Below are positions 4,487-63,233 of a stretch of 64,000 nt of DNA, piece by piece. Under the pieces are notes generated by a model. It did no database searches. It had not been told where the DNA came from and worked only from the letters and a program-made list of their open reading frames with translations. Each line of letters opens with the position of its first letter. The first letter of the stretch is position 1. The DNA comes from an uncultured Bacteroides sp. (GTDB lineage Bacteria; Bacteroidota; Bacteroidia; G022818785): the NCBI GenBank assembly GCA_964620755.1, contig CAZUHH010000008.1, positions 191,172 to 255,171 of the forward strand, read 5' to 3'. The translations under genes were made by a program, and so were the position numbers.

Positions 4487-5236
4487 ATGAATAATAAATT
4501 AAAATTAACATTAAAAGTATGGAGACAAGTAAGTTCAAATCATAAAGGTAAGTTTGAAAATTATACATTAAATGATATATCTCCAGATATGTCATTTTTA
4601 GAAATGTTTGATGTTTTAAATGAAAAACTTATCTATGCTAAAAAGGATCCAATTGCATTTGATCATGATTGTAGAGAAGGAATATGTGGATCTTGTTCTA
4701 TGTTTATAAATGGTAGGCCTCATGGTCCTAAAAATAGTATTACGACATGTCAATTACACATGAGATCTTTTAATTACGGTGATACTATAATTGTAGAACC
4801 ATGGAGATCAAATGCATTTCCTATTATAAAAGATTTAATAGTTGATAGATCTTCCTTTGACAGAATAATAACTAAAGGAGGTTATATATCGTTAAACACA
4901 GGTAATGCTGTAGATGCTAATGAAATTATTATTCCTAAATTAAATGCCGATAAATCTTTAGATGCTGCAGCGTGTATTGGATGTGGTGCTTGTGTAGCTG
5001 CTTGTAAAAATGCCTCTGCAATGTTATTTGTTGGCGCTAAAATATATCAATTCTCTCAATTACCACAAGGAATGCCAGAACAATCTAAAAGAGTTAAATC
5101 TATGATCAAGCAAATGGATAAAGAAGGATTCGGTAGTTGCACTAATACAGGTGCTTGTTCTGCTGAATGTCCTAAAAATATATCTTTAGATGTAATTAGT
5201 AGTTTAAATAAAGAATTAATAAAATCTATATTTTAA
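4487..5236 (+). CDS. sdhB: Succinate dehydrogenase iron-sulfur subunit
   Basis: Three Cys clusters [33 protein letters not shown] for 2Fe-2S/4Fe-4S/3Fe-4S centres. Confidence 0.9.
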
Positions 5237-7768: not shown

Positions 7769-7886
7769 ATATTTTATAATTCTGTTATTAAATAAAATTA
7801 ATTTTATATTACTTAATTTTATTCCAAAAATTTATATATTAGTATTAGTTCTATTTAATTATATAAATTTATGTAATATCATTAAA

Positions 7887-9569
7887 ATGCCACATATAAT
7901 CAATAAATATAGTAAAACCATAACACAGAATAAAAATCAGCCAGGAGCTAGAGCTATGTTGTATGCTGCTGGATTAAAAGATGAAGATTTTATTAATCCT
8001 ATTATAGGAATTGTTAGTGCTGGATATGAGGGTAATCCTTGCAACATGCATTTAAATAGTTTAGCAAAATTAGTTAAAAATGGTATGAAATCATCTAAAT
8101 TATTAGGATTAATTTTTAATACAATAGGAGTAAGTGATGGTATATCTATGGGTACATCTGGCATGAGATATTCGTTACCATCAAGAGAAATAATAGCAGA
8201 TTCAATTGAAGTTATTACTAATGCTCAATCTTATGATGGTATTATATCAGTTATGGGTTGTGATAAAAATATGCCAGGATCATTAATTGCAATGGCAAGA
8301 TTAAATAGGCCTAGTATAATGATATATGGAGGCACTATAAAAGCAGGATTATATCAAAATAGAAAATTAGATATTGCATCTGTATTTGAAGCCTTAGGTG
8401 AAAAATTTGCAAATAAAATTGATGATAATACATATAATAATATTATAAAAAATGCGTGTCCTGGACCTGGAGCTTGTGGTGGTATGTATACAGCCAATAC
8501 TATGGCAAGTGCAAGTGAAGCTTTAGGTATGAGTTTACCATATAGTGCTTCTTATTTAGCTATAAGTAATGATAAAAAAACAGAATGTCTTAATGTATCG
8601 CTATATATAAAAAAATTATTAATTAATGATATTAAACCTAGAGATATATTAACTAGAAAAGCTTTTGAAAATGCAGTTACCGTAATTATAGCTCTTGGTG
8701 GTTCAACAAATGCAGTTTTACATATTATTGCTATAGCAAAAGCTGCTAATATTGATTTTACAATTAAAGATTTTCAAAAAATAAGCGATAAAATACCTTA
8801 TTTAGCTGATTTTAGACCCAGTGGAAAATACTTAATGGAAGATATGCATTCTATAGGAGGAATACCATCTTTAATGAAAATGTTAATGAATAAAAATTTA
8901 ATACATGGAGATTGTATGACGGTTACAGGCTGTACAGTAGAAGAAAATTTAAATGAAGTGGAGCCTATTTCAAATAGTCAAAATATTATAAGAAGCTTTG
9001 ATAAGCCTATAAAAAGTAAAGGACATATACAAATTTTATATGGAAATCTTGCTTGTGAAGGTTCTGTTGCTAAAATAACTGGCCATGAAGGTGAATATTT
9101 TTCAGGCAAAGCACAGGTTTTTAACAGTGAAAGTGATATGATTAAAGCTGTGAAGGATAATATTATAAAAAAAGGTTCTGTTATTGTCATTAGATATTGT
9201 GGACCTAAAGGAGGTCCAGGTATGCCTGAAATGCTAAGCGCGACAGCAGCTGTTGTTGGTGCTGGATTAGGAAGAGATGTAGCACTTATAACAGATGGAA
9301 GATTTTCAGGAGGTACTCATGGTTTTGTTGTAGGTCATATAACTCCAGAAGCACAAGATGGAGGTACAATAGCATTGATTAAGGATGGAGATAAAATAAC
9401 AATAGATGTAATTAATAATTTATTAACTGTTGATCTATCTATTGAAGAAATAAATATTAGAAAAAAACATTGGAAAATGCCTCCATTTAAAGTTAAAAAT
9501 GGTATTTTAAAAAAATATATACATAGTGTATCTTCTGCTTCTAAAGGTTGTGTTACTGATATATTTTAA
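7887..9569 (+). CDS. ilvD: Dihydroxy-acid dehydratase
   Basis: [34 protein letters not shown] motifs; 560 aa. Confidence 0.95.
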
Positions 9570-9622
9570 TAATAATAAATATATAATTATATTTAAAATT
9601 ATAAATCTAAATAAATAAATCT

Positions 9623-11314
9623 ATGATTAATGGATCTGAAGCAATTATAGAATCTTTATTGAATGAAAATGTTACCACTATATTTGGATATCCAGGAGGG
9701 GCTATTATGCCGTTATATGATGCCTTATATAAATATAAACATACTATTAATCATATATTAGTACGACATGAACAGGGTGCAGTACATGCTGCTCAAGGTT
9801 ATTATAGAATAACAGGTAATATTGGAATATGTATTGCTACTTCTGGCCCAGGTGCAATAAATCTGTTAACAGGTATTACTGATGCTATGATGGATTCTAC
9901 AGCAATAATATGTATAACTGGTCAAGTTAATTCGAATTTGTTAGGTACAGATGCATTTCAAGAAGCTGATATAATTAGTATGACACATTCAATTACTAAA
10001 TGGAATTATCAAATAGTAGATTGTAATAGTATATCAGATATTATAGCTAAAGCTTTTCATATCGCATCTACAGGTAGGCCAGGTCCAATTTTGATTGATA
10101 TAACTAAAAATGCACAATTAGATAAATTAAATAAGAAGTTTTATTATAGCAAATGCAAGCATATTGATTTTTATTTACCTAAAAAAAAAGTAATTATAAA
10201 ATCTCTTAATAATATTGCTACAATAATTAATAATGCTAAACGTCCATATATATTGGCTGGACATGGTATTATAATTTCTAAAGCGCAAGATATTTTAGAA
10301 AAATTTATTGATAAAACTGACATACCTATAGCTTTAACTTTATTAGGTTTATCTGCTTTTCCTCATGATCATATTAATTATGTTGGTATGTTGGGTATGC
10401 ATGGTAATTATTCAGCTAATAAATTAATTCAGGAAGCAGATTTAATAATAGGTATAGGAATAAGGTTTGATGATAGAGTAACTGGCAATGTAGAATCTTT
10501 TGCTATAAATGCAAAAATTATTCATATTGATATTGATGCTGCTGAAATTAAAAAAATTATAAAAAATACTTATGAATATATAATAGGAGATGCTAATGAA
10601 ATTTTATCATTATTACTATCTTTAGTTGAAAAGCGAAATCACAAAAAATGGCTTAATATGTTTAAAGAATTGGACAATGAAGAAGTTAAACATATTATTA
10701 AAAATGATATTAATCCTATAAGTGGTAATATTAAAATGGGTGAGGTTATTAATTTATTGTCAATTAAAACTAAAGGAAATGCTGTAATAGTTGCAGATGT
10801 AGGTCAACATCAAATGTATGCTGCTAGATATTATAAATATCTTAAAAATAGTAGTTATATTACATCTGGAGGTTTAGGTACAATGGGGTTTGCTTTACCT
10901 GCAGCATTAGGTGTTAAAATAGGAGCACCAAATAAACAAGTGATTGTTATTGTAGGAGATGGAGGTTTTCAAATGACTATGCAAGAGCTAGGTACTATTA
11001 AGCAAAATAATCTTCCAATAAAAATTATTATTTTAAATAATGAATATTTAGGTATGGTAAGACAATGGCAACAATTATTTTTTGACAAGAGATATTCGTA
11101 TGTTGCAATGCAAAATCCTAATTTTGTCAAAATAGCTGAAAGTTTTAATATAAAGGGTAATAAAATCATAAATAGAGAAGATTTAAATAAAGGATTAGAT
11201 GATATGTTAAATTCAAATGATGCATTTTTGTTAGATATTTTAGTTTTAAGAGAATTAAATGTTTTTCCAATGATTCCTAGCGGTGCGTCTGTTTCTGATA
11301 TAAGATTACAATAA
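9623..11314 (+). CDS. ilvB: Acetolactate synthase large subunit
   Basis: ThDP-enzyme motifs GYPGGAIMPLYDAL and GDGGFQMTMQELGT; followed by small subunit. Confidence 0.9.
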   Translation: MINGSEAIIESLLNENVTTIFGYPGGAIMPLYDALYKYKHTINHILVRHEQGAVHAAQGYYRITGNIGICIATSGPGAINLLTGITDAMMDSTAIICITGQVNSNLLGTDAFQEADIISMTHSITKWNYQIVDCNSISDIIAKAFHIASTGRPGPILIDITKNAQLDKLNKKFYYSKCKHIDFYLPKKKVIIKSLNNIATIINNAKRPYILAGHGIIISKAQDILEKFIDKTDIPIALTLLGLSAFPHDHINYVGMLGMHGNYSANKLIQEADLIIGIGIRFDDRVTGNVESFAINAKIIHIDIDAAEIKKIIKNTYEYIIGDANEILSLLLSLVEKRNHKKWLNMFKELDNEEVKHIIKNDINPISGNIKMGEVINLLSIKTKGNAVIVADVGQHQMYAARYYKYLKNSSYITSGGLGTMGFALPAALGVKIGAPNKQVIVIVGDGGFQMTMQELGTIKQNNLPIKIIILNNEYLGMVRQWQQLFFDKRYSYVAMQNPNFVKIAESFNIKGNKIINREDLNKGLDDMLNSNDAFLLDILVLRELNVFPMIPSGASVSDIRLQ

Positions 11315-11324
11315 ATTATTTTTT

Positions 11325-11816
11325 ATGAAAAAACAATGTTATATTATACTTATTTATATTAAAAATGAGCTTGGAGTAATTAATAAGATATTAGGTATTT
11401 TTAATAGAAGAAGAATATTGATTTATAATATTTCTGTAGCACATTATAGCTCTAAAGCTATTTTTAGATTGGCTATCGAAGTTAATACCAATAAAGATAA
11501 AGTAGATACGATAACTAAATATATTAATAATGTCATAGAAGTTATTAAAGCAATTAATTGCCCTAAAGAAGATTTAATATGTAAATCTTCTATTTTATAT
11601 AGATTACCTATAAATAAGATTGATAATTATAATTCAATGATAAATAATTTATATAAAGACAGTAAAATACTATATATAGATAATCAATATTTAATTATTG
11701 AAAAATTGGTTGATAATAATGATATTGATAATATTTTAAATCAAAAAAATAAATTAAATGATATAGAATATCTAAAAATAGAATCTATAGGTTTAGTTAA
11801 AGATTTTTGTAATTGA
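11325..11816 (+). CDS. ilvN: Acetolactate synthase small (regulatory) subunit
   Basis: ACT-like N-terminus (ELGVINKILGIFNRRRI..NISV); sits between ilvB and ilvC. Confidence 0.7.
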   Translation: MKKQCYIILIYIKNELGVINKILGIFNRRRILIYNISVAHYSSKAIFRLAIEVNTNKDKVDTITKYINNVIEVIKAINCPKEDLICKSSILYRLPINKIDNYNSMINNLYKDSKILYIDNQYLIIEKLVDNNDIDNILNQKNKLNDIEYLKIESIGLVKDFCN

Positions 11817-11854
11817 ATATTAATATTTTGTTAACTTTTATAAAAAATATAATT

Positions 11855-12898
11855 ATGGCTAAAATAAATTTTGGAGGTGTTATTGAAGATGTTATAACTC
11901 ATAATGAGTATAGTATGAATCGTGCTGTAAATAATTTAAAAAATGAAGTAATTGCTGTTATAGGATATGGCATTCAAGGTCCTGGCCAAGCATTAAATTT
12001 AAAAGATAATGGATTTAATGTTATTGTAGGGCAAAGAAATAAATCAAAAAGTTGGGATAAAGCAAAAAATGATGGATGGATAGAAAATAAAGATTTATTT
12101 TCTATAGAAGATGCTTTACAAAAAGGTACTATAATTTTTTATTTATTATCTGATGCTGGTCAAATAGAATTATGGAATAAAGTTTATAAATATCTTAATA
12201 AAGATAAGACTTTATATTTTTCTCATGGTTTTGGCATTACATATAAAAAGTATACTGGAATTATTCCTCCTAAGAATGTAGATGTTATTTTAGTGGCTCC
12301 AAAAGGATCCGGCACTAGTTTACGTACTTTATTTTTGAATGGTGAAGGATTAAATGCAAGTTATGCAATATATCAAGATGCTTCTGGTCGTGCTTTAGAA
12401 AAAACACTTTCTCTTGGTATTGGAATAGGATCTTCATGTCTTTTTCCAACTACTTTTGAAAAAGAAGTTTATAGTGATTTGACAGGTGAAAGAGGAACAC
12501 TTTTAGGAGCTATTGCTGGTATATTTGAAGCTCAATATTCTGTTTTACGTAAAAATGGTCATAGCCCTAGTGAAGCTTATAATGAAACTGTAGAAGAATT
12601 TACTCAAAGTTTAATGCCTCTAATTGCTGCAAAAGGTATGAGTTGGATGTATGCTAATTGTTCTACTACAGCCCAAAGAGGTGCTTTCGATTGGAAAGAT
12701 CATTTTAAAAAAGCTACTGAACCTGTATTTAATAATATATATGAAAGTGTTAAAAGTGGTAAAGAAGCTCGTAATGTTATACTTGCTAATAGTAAACCTG
12801 ATTATCGTGAAAAATTGGATATAGAATTACATAATATGGAAAAATCTGAATTATGGCAAACAGGTATACAGTTGCGTAAATTGAGAATAAAATCATAA
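11855..12898 (+). CDS. ilvC: Ketol-acid reductoisomerase
   Basis: NADP-binding VIGYGIQGPGQALNLKDNG; start moved to ATG at 11855 (MAKINFGG), the track start 11813 is TTG overlapping ilvN. Confidence 0.9.
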   Translation: MAKINFGGVIEDVITHNEYSMNRAVNNLKNEVIAVIGYGIQGPGQALNLKDNGFNVIVGQRNKSKSWDKAKNDGWIENKDLFSIEDALQKGTIIFYLLSDAGQIELWNKVYKYLNKDKTLYFSHGFGITYKKYTGIIPPKNVDVILVAPKGSGTSLRTLFLNGEGLNASYAIYQDASGRALEKTLSLGIGIGSSCLFPTTFEKEVYSDLTGERGTLLGAIAGIFEAQYSVLRKNGHSPSEAYNETVEEFTQSLMPLIAAKGMSWMYANCSTTAQRGAFDWKDHFKKATEPVFNNIYESVKSGKEARNVILANSKPDYREKLDIELHNMEKSELWQTGIQLRKLRIKS

Positions 12899-12910
12899 AT
12901 TATACTGTGT

Positions 12911-12970
12911 AAAAGCATTTGTTTACATACTTATTTTTATCTAAAAATAAGTATATAAACAAATGCTTTT
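12911..12970 (+). terminator. Intrinsic terminator-like hairpin: 28-bp stem (27/28 paired), 4-nt loop, followed by TTTTTATT
   Basis: Left arm 12911..12938 aaaagcatttgtttacatacttattttt, loop 12939..12942 atct, right arm 12943..12970 aaaaataagtatataaacaaatgctttt; lies 13 bp after ilvC stop and 19 bp before next ATG. Confidence 0.6.
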
Positions 12971-12988
12971 TATTAGTAAAATGTTTTA

Positions 12989-14497
12989 ATGGTTAAAAAG
13001 TTACAATTAGTTAAAGGTTTTTATAACAATATAATTATTAATGACTTTAATAATGAAATTATATATTTAAAATATTCTCTTAATTTTTTTATTAAATTAA
13101 GCAATAATAAAAAATTGTTAATATTATTAAATACTGATTTATCTATAAATAATATTGAATATTTTAAATATATAATTTATCCTTTAATATCTACTAAAAT
13201 TATTAATAAGATATTTATTGTAAATAATAATTTAATCAAATCTTTCATTTGTAAAGAAAATATTTTTTTTTGCAATACAGTGTCACAGGTATGTGATATG
13301 ACAAAAATTAATTACGATAACAATAATGATATTTTATTGAAAGGTAATGATAAAAATATGATTAAAACTACTAATCATTTTTTTTGTATCAATAATAGCA
13401 ATACAATACTAAATATTAATTTAAATATTATAGAAAATAATTTACAAGTTTATAGAGATATTCTTAATAAGAAAACTAAAATTATGGCTATTGTAAAAGC
13501 ATATTCTTATGGATTTGGAGATATAATAGTCAATATATTACAATATTGCAACATTGATTATATAAGTGTTGCAAATACTTATGAAGGAGTTATTTTAAGA
13601 AAAAATGGCATTATATCCCCCATAATGATTATGAATTTTGATATTAATACATTTGACAGTCTTTTATATTATAATCTAGAACCTTCTATCTATAACTTTA
13701 AAACTTTAAAATTGTTAATATCATTCTTATTAAAAAAGAATATACATGATTTTAAAATACATATTAAATTTAATACTGGTATGAATAGATTAGGATTCGA
13801 TTATAAAGATATTATATTATTAGCAAATATTTTAAATAAATATTCAAATTTAATTATTATAAAATCAATATTTTCACATTTATCATCTAGTAAAAATATA
13901 TCATTTAAAATAATTACACAAAATCAAATTAAATTATTCAGTATAATAAAAAATAAAATGAAATTATACATAAAGTATAATATTTTATTTCATATTGCAA
14001 ATACTACAGCAATTATTAATTACCCCAATGCTCAATTTGATATGGTAAGATTAGGTATAGGATTATATGGTATAGATTATACAAAAAAATTAGATAAAAT
14101 TAAATTTTCAGCTTCTTTACAAACTATTATATCTCAAATTAGATATGTAAAAAAAAATCAAACAATTGGTTATAATTGCAAAGGTACTATAAAAAGAAAT
14201 TCTAAAATAGCTATTGTAAAAATAGGCTATGCAGATGGTTTAAAAACATATTATAATAATAATATAAATTATATGATAGTTAACAATATGAAAGCACCTG
14301 TAATAGGTAATATATGTATGGATATGACTATGTTGGATGTAACAAATATTAAATGTAAAGAACATGATATAGTAACAATATTTGATAATATTGATACACT
14401 TAATTATATAGCAAATATTTTAAATATTAGTCTTTATGAAATATTTACAAATATTTCATCAAGAGTAAATAGAATATATCATTATAGTTATAAATAA
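12989..14497 (+). CDS. alr: Alanine racemase with about 135-aa uncharacterised N-terminal extension
   Basis: PLP-lysine motif IMAIVKAYSYGFG at about aa 166-178 and C-terminal GNICMDMTMLDV; ORF is 502 aa versus about 365 aa for the catalytic domain. Confidence 0.8.
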   Translation: MVKKLQLVKGFYNNIIINDFNNEIIYLKYSLNFFIKLSNNKKLLILLNTDLSINNIEYFKYIIYPLISTKIINKIFIVNNNLIKSFICKENIFFCNTVSQVCDMTKINYDNNNDILLKGNDKNMIKTTNHFFCINNSNTILNINLNIIENNLQVYRDILNKKTKIMAIVKAYSYGFGDIIVNILQYCNIDYISVANTYEGVILRKNGIISPIMIMNFDINTFDSLLYYNLEPSIYNFKTLKLLISFLLKKNIHDFKIHIKFNTGMNRLGFDYKDIILLANILNKYSNLIIIKSIFSHLSSSKNISFKIITQNQIKLFSIIKNKMKLYIKYNILFHIANTTAIINYPNAQFDMVRLGIGLYGIDYTKKLDKIKFSASLQTIISQIRYVKKNQTIGYNCKGTIKRNSKIAIVKIGYADGLKTYYNNNINYMIVNNMKAPVIGNICMDMTMLDVTNIKCKEHDIVTIFDNIDTLNYIANILNISLYEIFTNISSRVNRIYHYSYK

Positions 14498-20474: not shown

Positions 20475-21352
20475 ATAACTTAATAAGTGGTACTGGTATA
20501 GCAATTATTACACCATTTAAAGAAAATTATAGTATAGATTATATAAGTTTTAGAAAAATCATTGAACATATCTGTAATAGCAACGTAAATTTCATAATAG
20601 TTGCAGGTACTACAGGTGAATCATCTCTTATAAGTGATTATGAAAGATGTAAAATTTTTGATTTTATAGCAAATATTAATAACAACAGACTAAAATTAAT
20701 AGCTTGTATTGGAGGTAATAATACTAAATCAGTTATTAAAATGATTAAAAATTTCCATTTATCAAAATACTATAAAGCTATATTATCAATTAGCCCATAT
20801 TATAACAAACCATCTCAAGATGGTATAATAATACATTATAAAAAAATAGCTGAAGTTTCTAAACTTCCTATCATAATATATAATATTCCTCATAGAACAA
20901 GTATTAATATATTGGTAGAAACAATTATTAAATTATCTGAAATTCCCAATATTATTGGCATTAAGGAATCTAATAGTAATGTAATAAATACATATAATAT
21001 TATTAACAAAACTAATTCAAATTTTTTATTTTTTTCGGGCGATGAAACTTTATCATTATCTGATATGGCATTAGGAGCCAATGGAATAATATCTGTTATA
21101 GGTAATGCATATCCTAATTTAGTATCTGATATGATAAACAAGTGTTTAAAAAACAATTTTATAGATGCGAAAAAAATATATAATAAACTTATGAAGATAA
21201 CATCTTTAATATTTCAAGAAGGTAATCCCTCAGGAATAAAAGAACTAATGTATCATTTAAATTTTTGTACTAATATAGTGAGATTACCTTTAACAAAAGT
21301 CAGCTATGATTTATCAAATAAAATTAAAAAAACAATCAAAAATGATTTTTAA
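20471..21352 (+). CDS. dapA: 4-hydroxy-tetrahydrodipicolinate synthase
   Basis: GTGIAIITPF and IVAGTTGES motifs of the DapA/NAL family; 293 aa. Confidence 0.88.
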   Translation: MNNLISGTGIAIITPFKENYSIDYISFRKIIEHICNSNVNFIIVAGTTGESSLISDYERCKIFDFIANINNNRLKLIACIGGNNTKSVIKMIKNFHLSKYYKAILSISPYYNKPSQDGIIIHYKKIAEVSKLPIIIYNIPHRTSINILVETIIKLSEIPNIIGIKESNSNVINTYNIINKTNSNFLFFSGDETLSLSDMALGANGIISVIGNAYPNLVSDMINKCLKNNFIDAKKIYNKLMKITSLIFQEGNPSGIKELMYHLNFCTNIVRLPLTKVSYDLSNKIKKTIKNDF

Positions 21353-21522
21353 TTGTTTTTTATATTTTGTACTTCTAATCTTATATCTTGAGCTATATTT
21401 TTAAGCATTTGCATGCCTTTTCTTAATCTAGTTCCAGCTGCACCATTACCTTTTTGATAAAATTTTTCAGCATCTTTTTCTAATGAAGTTAATACTTCTT
21501 TAAAATATTCGAATTTTTTCAT
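21349..21522 (-). CDS. Histone H1-like (Hc1-type) nucleoid protein, 57 aa
   Basis: Manual minus-strand translation MKKFEYFKEVLTSLEKDAEKFYQKGNGAAGTRLRKGMQMLKNIAQDIRLEVQNIKNN; GNxAAGTR.RK motif of Bacteroidota histone H1-like proteins; absent from ORF track (below length cut-off). Confidence 0.7.
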   Translation of the reverse strand: MKKFEYFKEVLTSLEKDAEKFYQKGNGAAGTRLRKGMQMLKNIAQDIRLEVQNIKNN

Positions 21523-37654: not shown

Positions 37655-38254
37655 ATGATTTATTCCATTAAAGGTATATTAAAATTAATTGAAAAAAATA
37701 AAATTATTATATCAAATAATAATATTGAATATATACTTATAATTACATTGTACACATATAAAAATATTATAAGTACATATAAAATTAATGACTTTATAAA
37801 AATATATACATATATTAATATTATCAAAGATAAATTTATTAATCTATATGGTTTTATCAATGAATATGAAAAAGAGTTATTTATTGTACTTTTATCGGTA
37901 TCTAAAATAGGACCTAGTACTTGTATATCAATTTTATCAGATATACCTTTTAATGAATTAAAACAACTTATTTTACAAGAAAATGTTAAAAAAATTAGTA
38001 ATATTAAAGGTATAGGTATTAAATCTGCTCAAAGAATAGTAATAGAATTAAAAGAAAAAATAAAAAAAGTTTCACTATATCATGGTAATATAACTATTGA
38101 TAGTTTACCAATTATTGATGAATCTATGAAAGCTCTTATGTCATTAGGTGTTAATAAAAATATAGCTGAAACCGTATTAAAAGATATTGTCAATAAATTT
38201 CCTAACAACAACAATATAGAATTTATTATAAAAGAAGCATTAAAAAAAATATAA
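37655..38254 (+). CDS. ruvA: Holliday junction DNA helicase RuvA
   Basis: N-terminal MIYSIKGIL OB-fold start, helix-hairpin-helix IKGIGIKSAQRIV; 199 aa. Confidence 0.82.
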   Translation: MIYSIKGILKLIEKNKIIISNNNIEYILIITLYTYKNIISTYKINDFIKIYTYINIIKDKFINLYGFINEYEKELFIVLLSVSKIGPSTCISILSDIPFNELKQLILQENVKKISNIKGIGIKSAQRIVIELKEKIKKVSLYHGNITIDSLPIIDESMKALMSLGVNKNIAETVLKDIVNKFPNNNNIEFIIKEALKKI

Positions 38255-38260
38255 AATTAT

Positions 38261-38545
38261 TCATTTGTATTTTTTTAATTGCACAATAAGTGAATCTACA
38301 GCTATGTTAATACCTTCATAAAAATTTTTGCAATATTTTTTAACAAACAAAGTATTGTGAGGTATAACTGCCATTATACCAATGGTATTTCTCTTTTTTA
38401 AACACTGGTCTATTTTGAGATATATTTTACATAAAATAATATTATTATAAAAACATGATATTTTTTTAATCTTTTTTATAGCTGTATTTACAAGATTGCT
38501 ACTTTTATCAAAATTAACACATTGTATAAGAATATTCATAATCAT
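38261..38545 (-). CDS. hpf: Ribosome hibernation promoting factor / RaiA-family protein
   Basis: NIILCKIYLK and INIAVDSLIVQLKKYK align with HPF core (VYVVLKVEK ... AAIDGLIDKLARQLTKHK). Confidence 0.65.
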   Translation of the reverse strand: MIMNILIQCVNFDKSSNLVNTAIKKIKKISCFYNNIILCKIYLKIDQCLKKRNTIGIMAVIPHNTLFVKKYCKNFYEGINIAVDSLIVQLKKYK

Positions 38546-38574: not shown

Positions 38575-38769
38575 TTACATATAATCTTTATCTTTTATTT
38601 TTTGTTTATAAATAGCATTTTTTATAATGTTCCTTCTCTTTGTAGAATTTTTTTCAAATGATTGCCTATTACGTAATTCTTTTAAAATACCTATCTTATC
38701 AAATTTTCTTTTAAATTTTCTAATAGCTCTATCGAAATTATCTCCTTCTTTAATTTCAGTTATTATCAT
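38575..38769 (-). CDS. rpsU: 30S ribosomal protein S21
   Basis: 64 aa basic protein, FDRAIRKFKRK and KRRNIIKNAIYKQK typical of S21. Confidence 0.85.
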   Translation of the reverse strand: MIITEIKEGDNFDRAIRKFKRKFDKIGILKELRNRQSFEKNSTKRRNIIKNAIYKQKIKDKDYM

Positions 38770-38875: not shown

Positions 38876-40006
38876 ATGAATATTGGAATGATAGGTTATC
38901 CTACATATGGTGGTAGTGGAATAATTGCAAGTGAATTAAGTAATCATTTGGCATTAAAAAATCATACAATACATTTTTTTAGCTATTGTCAACCTGTTAG
39001 ATTAAATATGTATTCTAATAATATTTTTTTTCATAAAATAATTACATTAAAAGAATCAATATTGAAATATAAATTATATGAATCAGAATTAATTAGTACC
39101 GTCATTGATATATATTATAAATATTCATTAGATATATTACATATTCATTATGCAATACCACATGCTTATGTGGGATGTATGATAAAAGATATTTTATTGG
39201 CTAATAAAATTAAATTATTGCTAATAACAACTTTACATGGAACTGATATAACATTAATTCAAAAAAGAAAAATATATATTCCGTTAATAGAATATGCTAT
39301 TAATCACTCAGATGGTCTAACTACAGTTTCCAATTCGTTAAAAGAAGATACATTAAAGTATTTTAATGTAAAAAATAATATTATTACAATACCTAACTTT
39401 ATAGATATTAAAAGATTTAGATATTATGATAATAATATTTTAAAAAATATGATAGCACCTAACAATGAATTTATTATTATCCATGTTTCTAATTTTAGAA
39501 AAGTAAAAAATGCAAAAGATGTTATAATCATATTTTTTAAAATATTACAATGTAAAAATATATGTGCCAAATTAGTATTAATTGGAGAAGGCCCTGAAAT
39601 GAATAATGTTAAAGCTATATGTGAAAAATATAATATAACGGAATATGTATACTTTTTAGGATACCAAAGTATTATTGAAGATTTTTATAATATAAGTGAT
39701 ATATTGTTACTTCCATCGTATTTAGAATCGTTTAGTTTAGTCGCATTAGAGGCTATGTCTTGTGGTGTTCCCGTAATATCATCTAATGCGGGAGGATTAT
39801 CAGAAATTAATATTAATGGCAAAACTGGATTTGTTTCTCCTATTGGGGATATTGAATCTATGTCTAAAAATGCTATATACTTATTGAAAAATATTAATAT
39901 ATTAAAATTATTTAAAAAAAATGCGTGTCATTATGCTAGAAATTTTGATAAAAATAATATTGTTGAATTATATGAAAAATATTATTATAGCTTAATAAAA
40001 AAGTAA
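38876..40006 (+). CDS. bshA: N-acetyl-alpha-D-glucosaminyl L-malate synthase (bacillithiol glycosyltransferase, GT4)
   Basis: N-terminus MNIGMIGYPTYGGSGIIASEL, HYAIPHA, TTLHGTDIT and HVSNFRKVKN align closely with BshA. Confidence 0.78.
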   Translation: MNIGMIGYPTYGGSGIIASELSNHLALKNHTIHFFSYCQPVRLNMYSNNIFFHKIITLKESILKYKLYESELISTVIDIYYKYSLDILHIHYAIPHAYVGCMIKDILLANKIKLLLITTLHGTDITLIQKRKIYIPLIEYAINHSDGLTTVSNSLKEDTLKYFNVKNNIITIPNFIDIKRFRYYDNNILKNMIAPNNEFIIIHVSNFRKVKNAKDVIIIFFKILQCKNICAKLVLIGEGPEMNNVKAICEKYNITEYVYFLGYQSIIEDFYNISDILLLPSYLESFSLVALEAMSCGVPVISSNAGGLSEININGKTGFVSPIGDIESMSKNAIYLLKNINILKLFKKNACHYARNFDKNNIVELYEKYYYSLIKK

Positions 40007-61832: not shown

Positions 61833-63233
61833 ATGATTAGTTTGCTATTATTATTATTGATTCCTATTGTAGGAAGTTTAATTATTATTATTTGTTCAAA
61901 AAAATATAGTAAACTTATTATATTATTAACTTCTATAATAGAATTTTTACAGGTATTATATATTATTAAACAAATTAAAATCATTAATGATTTTAATTTG
62001 TTTAATAATATAGGCATTGATGGTATTAGTGCTTGCATGATATTAATGTCCGTTTCGTTATTTTTATTAATTATAATTTCAACATATAAATTTGATAATT
62101 ATAATAAAATAATATACTCAGGGTCTCTTTTTTCATTATGTGGCATAATAGGAGTTTATTTGTCTTTAAATGCTTTTTTATTTTATTTATTTTGGGAATT
62201 ATCTTTATTACCAATATATATTATTTTATTAAGTATTGCTAAAAAATATCATCATGATAATATCATAAAAAATTTTTTAAGATATAGTATGCTATCTAGC
62301 ATTACTATGATAACTATTATTTTATATATATATAGCCAATTAGATACTAAGTCATTTATTATCAGTGAATTATATTCATTTAAATATAATTTAAATAGCC
62401 AAATATTAATTTTTATTGCTTTTTTTATAAGTTTTGCAATAAAAATTCCTTTATTTCCATTTCACAAATGGCAACCTGAATTATATAATATATCACCTAG
62501 CATAATATCAATGTTACTAGCTGCTATAATGTCTAAAATGGGTGTATATGGAATAATAAGATTTATATTACCAATTAATAATGAATTAATTACTCAATAT
62601 TCAATATATATTATAATATTTATAATATTAGGGATGATATATGCATCTATTATGGCTTGCTATCAAAATAATATTAAAATTATGATTGGATATTCTTCTA
62701 TAGCTCATAGTAGTTTATTAATAATTAGTATATTTACCAAAAATATTATTGCTGTTCAAGGGGCAATATTACAAATGTTCAATCATGGATTAATAATTAT
62801 AGGATTATTTATGATAGTTAATATTGTATCATGTGCTTATAAAACTACATATATAAATAAGTTTAGTGGTATAATTGAAAAGTATCCATTATTAGAATTA
62901 TTTATATTAAGTGTTATATTAAGCAGTGTTGCATTTCCTTGCACAGGCAGTTTTATTAGTGAGATTATAATATTTTATAGTATTATAAATTATAATATTT
63001 GCATCGGTATATTAGTAAGTATTATAGTTATATTAACAACTATATATATGATGAATTTATATAAAAGTATGTTAGGTATTAATTCAGTAAAAATTAATGG
63101 TAATTATAAAATTAAAACAAGCGAAATAATAGCAATATTAACAACAATTGTATTAATATTTTTAATGAATGTTTTATCAAGATATATTATGAATTTGTCA
63201 TACTATTCATTATCAATTTTATTAAATTACTAG
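61833..63233 (+). CDS. nuoM: NADH-quinone oxidoreductase subunit M
   Basis: PFHKWQPELYNISPSIISMLLAAIMSKMGVYG block; 466 aa. Confidence 0.88.
   Translation: MISLLLLLLIPIVGSLIIIICSKKYSKLIILLTSIIEFLQVLYIIKQIKIINDFNLFNNIGIDGISACMILMSVSLFLLIIISTYKFDNYNKIIYSGSLFSLCGIIGVYLSLNAFLFYLFWELSLLPIYIILLSIAKKYHHDNIIKNFLRYSMLSSITMITIILYIYSQLDTKSFIISELYSFKYNLNSQILIFIAFFISFAIKIPLFPFHKWQPELYNISPSIISMLLAAIMSKMGVYGIIRFILPINNELITQYSIYIIIFIILGMIYASIMACYQNNIKIMIGYSSIAHSSLLIISIFTKNIIAVQGAILQMFNHGLIIIGLFMIVNIVSCAYKTTYINKFSGIIEKYPLLELFILSVILSSVAFPCTGSFISEIIIFYSIINYNICIGILVSIIVILTTIYMMNLYKSMLGINSVKINGNYKIKTSEIIAILTTIVLIFLMNVLSRYIMNLSYYSLSILLNY

Follow-up and report, generated by a model that had tools for sequence, protein, structure and literature searches.

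A long A/U-stemmed, terminator-like hairpin between ilvC and alr in a reduced, AT-rich genome

Structure and setting of the ilvC-alr hairpin

What is the role of an exceptionally long hairpin that lies between the branched-chain amino-acid genes and alr in a very AT-rich genome? The original prediction for this junction described a near-perfect hairpin with a 28-bp stem, one mismatch, a 4-nt loop and a following T-run. It proposed that the structure may insulate ilvDBNC from the genes downstream, may act as an RNA stability or processing element, or may be a copy of a dispersed palindromic repeat.

The window, i.e. the whole 64-kb stretch of DNA that was analysed, had a GC content of 20.8%, consistent with the roughly 20% claimed beforehand. 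It encodes sdh, nuo and clpPX genes, the shikimate, lysine and branched-chain amino-acid pathways, nusA and RNase R. Its genes are packed as tightly as in a host-restricted bacterium, and the genome is tiny, AT-rich and symbiont-like. Two small minus-strand ORFs, at 38261-38545 (94 aa) and 38575-38769 (64 aa), fill an apparent gap of 620 nt that separates the ORF at 37655-38254 from that at 38876-40006; by eye, the 64-aa ORF looks like ribosomal protein S21.

Pfam assignments placed ilvD, ilvB, ilvN and ilvC upstream of the hairpin and an alanine racemase gene downstream, in agreement with the predicted setting. The genes and the parts of the hairpin were located as follows.

7887-9569, + strand: ilvD (Pfam)
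9623-11314, + strand: ilvB (Pfam)
11325-11816, + strand: ilvN (Pfam)
11813 or 11855 to 12898, + strand: ilvC (Pfam)
7887-12898, + strand: putative ilvDBNC transcription unit, closed by the hairpin (genes by Pfam)
12911-12970, + strand: core hairpin, with 29-nt arms, 28 paired positions, a loop of 2-4 nt and a core fold of -26.5 kcal/mol
12911-12939, + strand: left arm, AAAAGCATTTGTTTACATACTTATTTTTA, opening with an A-run (12911-12914) followed by GC (12915-12916)
12942-12970, + strand: right arm, TAAAAATAAGTATATAAACAAATGCTTTT, in which A12955, opposite C12926, is the sole mismatch
12967-12974, + strand: T-run, TTTTTATT, directly after the G-C pairs of the stem base; candidate terminator U-tract
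12989-14497, + strand: alr, alanine racemase of 502 aa (Pfam), a shortened MurF-Alr fusion

In the database, the ilvC protein has 347 aa, which points to the ATG at 11855 as the start of this gene. Downstream of alr, the genes aroA, rplS and dnaX are on the opposite strand (Pfam). aroA is convergent with alr and ends 9 nt past it, beside a 15-bp hairpin at 14431-14464 that lies within the last 70 nt of alr and has no T-run on either strand. The alr ORF starts at approximately residue 327 of the bifunctional MurF-Alr protein of about 820 aa that is typical of free-living Bacteroidota, so that all that is left of MurF is a C-terminal remnant. The 90-nt ilvC-alr spacer was also considered as a murF remnant. 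However, when full-length fusions were compared with 12700-13400 by tblastn, they aligned only from approximately residue 327, inside alr, and nothing credible was found in the spacer.

The ilvC stop codon TAA (12896-12898, preceded by AAA TCA) is followed by ATTATACTGTGT and then by the hairpin, which leaves a gap of 12 nt between stop and stem. The hairpin reads AAAAGCATTTGTTTACATACTTATTTTTA-TC-TAAAAATAAGTATATAAACAAATGCTTTT. On its 3' side it is followed by TATTAGTAAAATGTTTTA and then by the alr ATG at 12989, with a gap of 18 nt between stem and ATG. The right arm differs from the reverse complement of the left arm at one position, and the arms are therefore complementary at 28 of 29 positions. 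The mismatched C12926 and A12955 form a C.A opposition in the + strand RNA and a G.U pair in the - strand RNA. RNAfold drew 15 and 12 pairs on the two sides of a 1x1 internal loop, closed by the 4-nt loop AUCU. The number of pairs in the stem thus varies between 27 and 28 with the drawing of the loop, and in these terms the structure matches the one originally described. Its outer four pairs are formed by the A-run and the T-run, since the first four T of TTTTTATT can pair with the A-run at 12911-12914.

The G-C content of the stem was low (4 of 28 pairs, 14%). The only adjacent G-C pairs, 12915-16 with 12965-66, are located at the base of the stem, right before TTTTTATT. On the - strand the tail of the hairpin is TTTTACACAG, which is weaker than the tail on the + strand: only four T, which are the T-run of the stem itself, lie between the G-C pairs and ACACAG. 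The hairpin therefore has a terminator-like polarity on the + strand.

The fold of the core 60-mer as RNA gave -26.5 kcal/mol, of which -22.2 kcal/mol is obtained when the stem is counted from the G-C pairs inward. Within a 101-nt context the free energy was -32.1 kcal/mol (z = -7.8), and none of 200 shuffled sequences folded as well. The - strand folded slightly better (-33.8 kcal/mol), the mismatch being a G.U pair there. When both strands of the 64 kb were folded in sliding segments of 70 nt, the hairpin site was the extreme, with -31.8 kcal/mol compared to a mean of -6.3 (SD 3.1), a distance of approximately 8 SD. When the whole 64 kb was shuffled 20 times with dinucleotides preserved, hairpins that were allowed up to one mismatch reached a maximum of 13-16 pairs, versus the 28 observed. 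A chance origin of the ilvC-alr hairpin is therefore excluded.

A counterpart in CP063811 and the origin of the stem

Relatives were sought by protein searches with alr, ilvC and nuoM and by a genome scan with ilvC. Besides the source genome itself, a contig of 294,096 bp, the sole close relative found in public data was CP063811.1, a genome of 489,825 bp labelled 'Bacteroides sp. cpbc052018', whose ilvC and alr are 77-78% and 47% identical to those of the window, respectively. The remaining matches were free-living Bacteroidota with identities of at most 73%, and the two next-best ilvC matches (P0122 and P0125) are free-living Bacteroidota in which the gene context differs. For ilvC and nuoM, the closest homologues from free-living bacteria belong to Sphingobacteriales and Cytophagales (Anseongella, Solitalea, Olivibacter, Dyadobacter and Pedobacter). 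From these homologues, the 294 kb genome that contains the window and CP063811 may represent a reduced lineage outside the well-known insect symbionts of the Flavobacteriales.

The gene order of the window is the same in CP063811 over at least 21 kb (sdhAB-M16-M16-ilvDBNC-alr-aroA-rplS-dnaX-...-clpPX). The alr of CP063811 has the same truncation (505 aa), which indicates that the loss of murF is older than the split of the two genomes.

The hairpin was sought in this relative, and one of unrelated sequence was found at the same place between ilvC and alr. In CP063811 the ilvC stop is at L001 5075-5077 and the alr ATG at 5142, and the hairpin between them reads AATATTATGATCTATA-TT-TATAGATCATAATATT, followed by TTATAGTATTTT. 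Its stem is a perfect 15 bp closed by a loop of 4 nt; in the extended form, 19 of 20 positions pair. The free energy is -14 to -17 kcal/mol, with z = -3.9. The arms of the two hairpins share no alignable sequence. The spacings in the two genomes were as follows.

Window: ilvC stop to stem, 12 nt; stem to alr ATG, 18 nt
CP063811: ilvC stop to stem, 11 nt; stem to alr ATG, about 19 nt

Among 12 orthologous junctions compared, ilvC-alr alone had a strong hairpin in the window as well as in CP063811. Five further hairpins of 15-20 pairs, mostly within genes, lie in the 21.5 kb of CP063811 that are syntenic with the window, and from these we roughly estimated a chance of 1-5% for one of them to land in the ilvC-alr spacer. 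The coincidence in position is thus suggestive, though not conclusive. An ancestral terminator after ilvC was also looked for in 20 loci of free-living Bacteroidota, and no consistent hairpin was seen there. Therefore, the element is specific to the reduced lineage, or at least was not anciently fixed.

Several DNA-level explanations bear on the same comparison, namely a cruciform, a palindromic site for a dimeric protein, or a dispersed REP- or MITE-like copy. AT-rich perfect palindromes extrude readily under supercoiling, and the hairpin 60-mer also folds well as DNA (-22 kcal/mol). Nevertheless, copies of the arm were lacking wherever they were searched for. With up to three mismatches, only the two arms themselves matched in the 64-kb window; the long hairpins listed for the 21.5 kb of CP063811 included none with the arm sequence; and neither the exact arm pattern in metagenome contigs nor blastn of the arm against plasmids gave a match. 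The lack of a second copy in the window leaves a dispersed palindromic repeat of the REP, BIME or MITE type unsupported, and with the metagenome contigs and plasmids also negative, we rejected this part of the original prediction. The parts that proposed an insulator or terminator, or a stability or processing element, stood: they fit the sense strand, the position, the stem base with its U-run, and the counterpart in CP063811. The lack of conserved hairpin sequence between the two genomes argues against a protein recognition site. A replication origin or terminus at the hairpin was rejected as well, since the cumulative GC skew, apart from local dips, increases over most of the window and has no sustained reversal at this site. 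We consider a DNA-level element highly improbable.

Known RNA families were also searched. Rfam 15 at gathering thresholds called only RNase P RNA and tRNA-Leu in the window, both elsewhere. A permissive Rfam scan of 12700-13200 returned only sub-threshold models of eukaryotic pre-miRNAs, the best with 35 bits against a threshold of 81. Matches of this kind are what any long A/U hairpin would give, and a known RNA family was therefore rejected for the hairpin.

The length and the near-perfection of the stem call for an explanation of their own. The length probably reflects the base composition, since a genome of 21% GC needs many A-U pairs for stability. The near-perfection probably arose by template switching during replication, which converts imperfect inverted repeats into perfect ones. 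Such correction, by which perfect inverted repeats are generated and maintained, has been described in Proteobacteria, E. coli among them (PMC5941160; PMC7202029).

Other inverted repeats of striking perfection were present in both genomes. In the window, nuoM contains a perfect 54-bp palindrome, YIIKQIKIINDFNLFNNI, at 61959-62012 (27+27, no spacer), which is in frame and covers codons 43-60. It corresponds to a variable loop that immediately precedes the conserved GIDGIS motif and in which the homologues are 12 residues longer. The palindrome looks like a recent template-switch event, but may be an assembly artefact. In CP063811, ligA contains a perfect 20-bp hairpin (L081 16497-16539), and two adjacent 17-bp hairpins (L081 17474-17511 and 17522-17561) lie in the 3'-terminal part of the DUF6913 gene, immediately ahead of dapA. 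These ligA and DUF6913 hairpins are well above the shuffle expectation (maximum 11-15 pairs) and have no counterpart in the window. Together, the nuoM palindrome and the in-gene hairpins of CP063811 suggest that template switching creates or perfects inverted repeats in these genomes.

Since long near-perfect hairpins occur inside genes of both genomes, a purely mutational origin of the ilvC-alr hairpin is possible. Under this main rival explanation, a template switch copied one arm within a dispensable spacer, and the product has no role and is either young or repeatedly re-corrected. The in-frame palindrome of nuoM, the 17-20 bp hairpins of ligA and DUF6913 that are found in CP063811 and not in the window, and the published record of template switching cited above all speak for it. 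The single mismatch would also fit a mutation from G to A in the right arm, and AT-biased genomes favour changes in this direction. However, the two genomes, whose spacers are otherwise randomised, have unrelated hairpins at the same spacing from the flanking codons and in the same spacer of 64-90 nt, and the hairpin has the polarity of a terminator, with its A-run, G-C pairs at the stem base and U-run on the sense strand. A neutral by-product would account for the origin of the hairpin, and to that extent it is compatible with a terminator, but it would not account for the presence of a hairpin at this junction in both lineages. We regard it as rather unlikely as the whole explanation, and we infer instead that the perfection of the hairpin is mutational in origin and its persistence at the ilvC-alr junction selective.

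Transcription of ilvDBNC and alr

The -7 promoter motif of the Bacteroidetes is TAnnTTTG (PMC7366714). Exact matches were present 27-55 nt upstream of six genes of the window (rnhA, aroQ, clpP, a DHH-family gene, nusA and tRNA-Leu), at the following positions.

381, 17392, 23062, 28019, 41160, 47421: TAnnTTTG

Four of the six genes head operons at divergent junctions. The total of TAnnTTTG over all upstream windows was close to chance, and only this divergent-junction subset stands out. A Bacteroidetes-type promoter thus appears to be retained in the reduced genome, and the motif may mark operon starts.

No exact TAnnTTTG was found in the 240 nt before the alr ATG (12750-12988), and the 18 nt from the stem to this ATG cannot hold a promoter. 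A promoter of alr's own was considered from the only matches found, which have one mismatch (TAnnTTTA), coincide in both genomes with the apex of the hairpin and do not have the conserved G; it was not adopted. alr appears, from this arrangement, to depend on transcription that passes through the hairpin.

At the other end of the cluster, a conserved block was found upstream of ilvD.

7827-7847, + strand: 21-nt block, AAAATTTATATATTAGTATTA, identical in CP063811 (L081 4867-4887), 40-60 nt upstream of ilvD

The spacer around AAAATTTATATATTAGTATTA has otherwise diverged between the two genomes. The block includes TATATTAG, a one-mismatch version of the Bacteroidetes -7 motif, and is a probable ilv promoter or control site, which would make it the 5' boundary of the ilvDBNC unit. 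Judged from the two sequences, ilvDBNC is flanked by a 5' element conserved in sequence and a 3' element conserved in structure.

The features of the 3' element were compared with those of intrinsic terminators. A stem-loop begins on the sense (+) strand 12 nt past the ilvC TAA, its stability is well above the background, and a hairpin is kept at the orthologous position in the one relative, CP063811. The T-run TTTTTATT supplies a U-tract, although this feature discriminates weakly because the background is T-rich. On the other hand, intrinsic terminators have short (about 5-14 bp), G-C-rich stems, and this one has 27-28 pairs with four G-C. Hence the original prediction was right that the stem far exceeds the usual terminator length, by more than twofold, and the usual G-C-richness is also lacking; a consensus terminator scan, which requires at least three G-C pairs, did not call the hairpin. 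The stability of the stem far exceeds what termination requires, and this counts against a terminator. Moreover, a comparable hairpin is missing from the majority of operon ends and convergent gene pairs of the window, which indicates that the genome does not generally rely on such elements.

One weaker hairpin of the same design (A-run, stem, T-run) was found elsewhere in the window.

21327-21361: second hairpin, AAAAAACAATCAAAAAT-G-ATTTTTAATTGTTTTTT followed by ATATTTTG, 16 bp, -10.8 kcal/mol, z = -3.2

It overlaps the stop codon of dapA, at the end of the aroQ-ligA-DUF6913-dapA string and ahead of the RNase P RNA gene. CP063811 has no counterpart of this hairpin at the orthologous place.

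Taken together, the ilvC-alr hairpin is most likely an intrinsic-terminator-like 3' element with an atypically long A/U stem. Our preferred reading, to which we assign a probability of about 0.6, is that it terminates or attenuates ilvDBNC transcription and protects the 3' end of the mRNA, with some transcription leaking into alr. Once the polymerase has passed the ilvC stop, the nascent RNA would fold into a 24-bp stem whose base is closed by the two G-C pairs; the A-run/U-run pairs would lengthen the stem to 28 bp, and UUUUUAUU would directly follow. NusA is known elsewhere to aid hairpin-dependent termination, and a NusA homologue and RNase R are both encoded in the window. A ribosome on the stop codon 12 nt before the stem should not need to melt it, given the ribosomal footprint. 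Transcripts that end at the hairpin would carry a very stable 3' stem, which would slow down 3'-to-5' exonucleases. Since alr starts 18 nt downstream without a recognisable promoter, termination is probably incomplete. Read-through would then express alr, and the hairpin would set a ratio of high ilv to low alr expression.

A processing site of the RNase III type would divide the same transcript differently, by a cut in the stem of at least 24 bp that detaches a stable ilvDBNC mRNA from that of alr and makes their half-lives independent. The inter-cistronic stems of phage T7 early mRNA and the 3' inverted repeats of chloroplast mRNAs are processing analogues. Two helical turns are generally taken as the minimum substrate of RNase III, and the stem exceeds this length; for a requirement of about 20 continuous bp or more, it offers 15 and 12 pairs around one 1x1 mismatch. 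It also lies between co-oriented genes, the second of which has no promoter motif, and the spacing is the same in CP063811, although the stem there has only 15-19 bp and is shorter than a good substrate. However, no rnc was found among the 56 ORFs of the 64-kb window, which covers about a quarter of the genome, and processing has no need of a U-run and a G-C stem base. A site of this type is accordingly quite unlikely. A related proposal holds that the stem is kept long and perfect for use as double-stranded RNA, which an RNase III-type enzyme would cut into duplexes of about 22 nt, thereby separating the ilv and alr messages. The enzyme would be the bacterium's own or, more speculatively, the Dicer of a host after leakage of the RNA. 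We consider this proposal very unlikely.

The hairpin may also act in translation. When folded, the stem would leave approximately 30 nt of single strand between the two genes, and ribosomes that finish ilvC could re-initiate on alr across this bridge. The phylum Bacteroidota makes little use of Shine-Dalgarno sequences. The distances conserved in both genomes (11-12 nt from stop to stem and 18-19 nt from stem to ATG) agree with such coupling, as does the missing promoter motif before alr. Nevertheless, the proposal is wholly inferential, a compact terminator predicts the same spacing, and coupling and read-through look alike at the level of the sequence. We hold translational coupling to be extremely doubtful.

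If the hairpin works as a leaky terminator and 3' protector, it would be one of the few transcriptional punctuation marks that survive in a 294 kb genome stripped of most regulation. Together with AAAATTTATATATTAGTATTA, it would mark off the branched-chain amino-acid operon as a separate and probably highly expressed unit; ilvDBNC is probably what such a symbiont contributes to nutrition. A lower expression of the cell-wall gene alr right behind the operon would be explained as well. In extremely AT-rich genomes, terminator-like hairpins may gain stability by length rather than by G-C pairs, and template switching may preserve their perfection. The current understanding of termination is unchanged by this locus, and the value of the element lies mainly in annotation and transcript mapping in a little-known lineage.

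Comparison with known systems

In its perfection, the hairpin resembles the products of quasipalindrome correction (PMC5941160; PMC7202029), in which perfect repeats arise without selection on each pair; the nuoM palindrome looks alike. Quasipalindrome correction is, however, a mutational mechanism without a function, and it leaves the hairpin at the junction in both genomes unexplained.

With intrinsic terminators the hairpin shares its place on the sense strand a few nucleotides past the last stop of an operon, a 4-nt loop, G-C pairs at the stem base, a U-run and a mirroring A-run. It differs from them in a stem of 24-28 bp, compared to about 5-14 bp, and in a G-C content of 14%, where their stems are mostly G-C. 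In addition, the next gene here is only 18 nt away on the same strand and has no promoter motif, so that alr would be silent if termination were complete.

The 3' inverted repeats of chloroplast mRNAs are mainly signals for 3'-end processing and stabilisation and are poor terminators. The ilvC-alr hairpin is like these stem-loops in having a long A/U-rich stem at the 3' end of an mRNA, and the chloroplast genome is likewise derived from an endosymbiont; by analogy, a similar action would fit read-through into alr. This likeness is an analogy of mechanism only; the processing enzymes and RNA-binding proteins concerned are known for chloroplasts and not from this window.

Finally, Buchnera offers a comparison in another reduced, AT-rich and host-restricted genome, although the phylum here is Bacteroidota and its promoter system is different. 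The terminators of Buchnera are weaker than those of E. coli (PMC3091783), whereas the ilvC-alr hairpin is far more stable than either. Nevertheless, Buchnera terminators persist at orthologous positions without conservation of their primary sequence (PMC3164680), and the ilvC-alr hairpin is like them in that its position is kept and its sequence is not.
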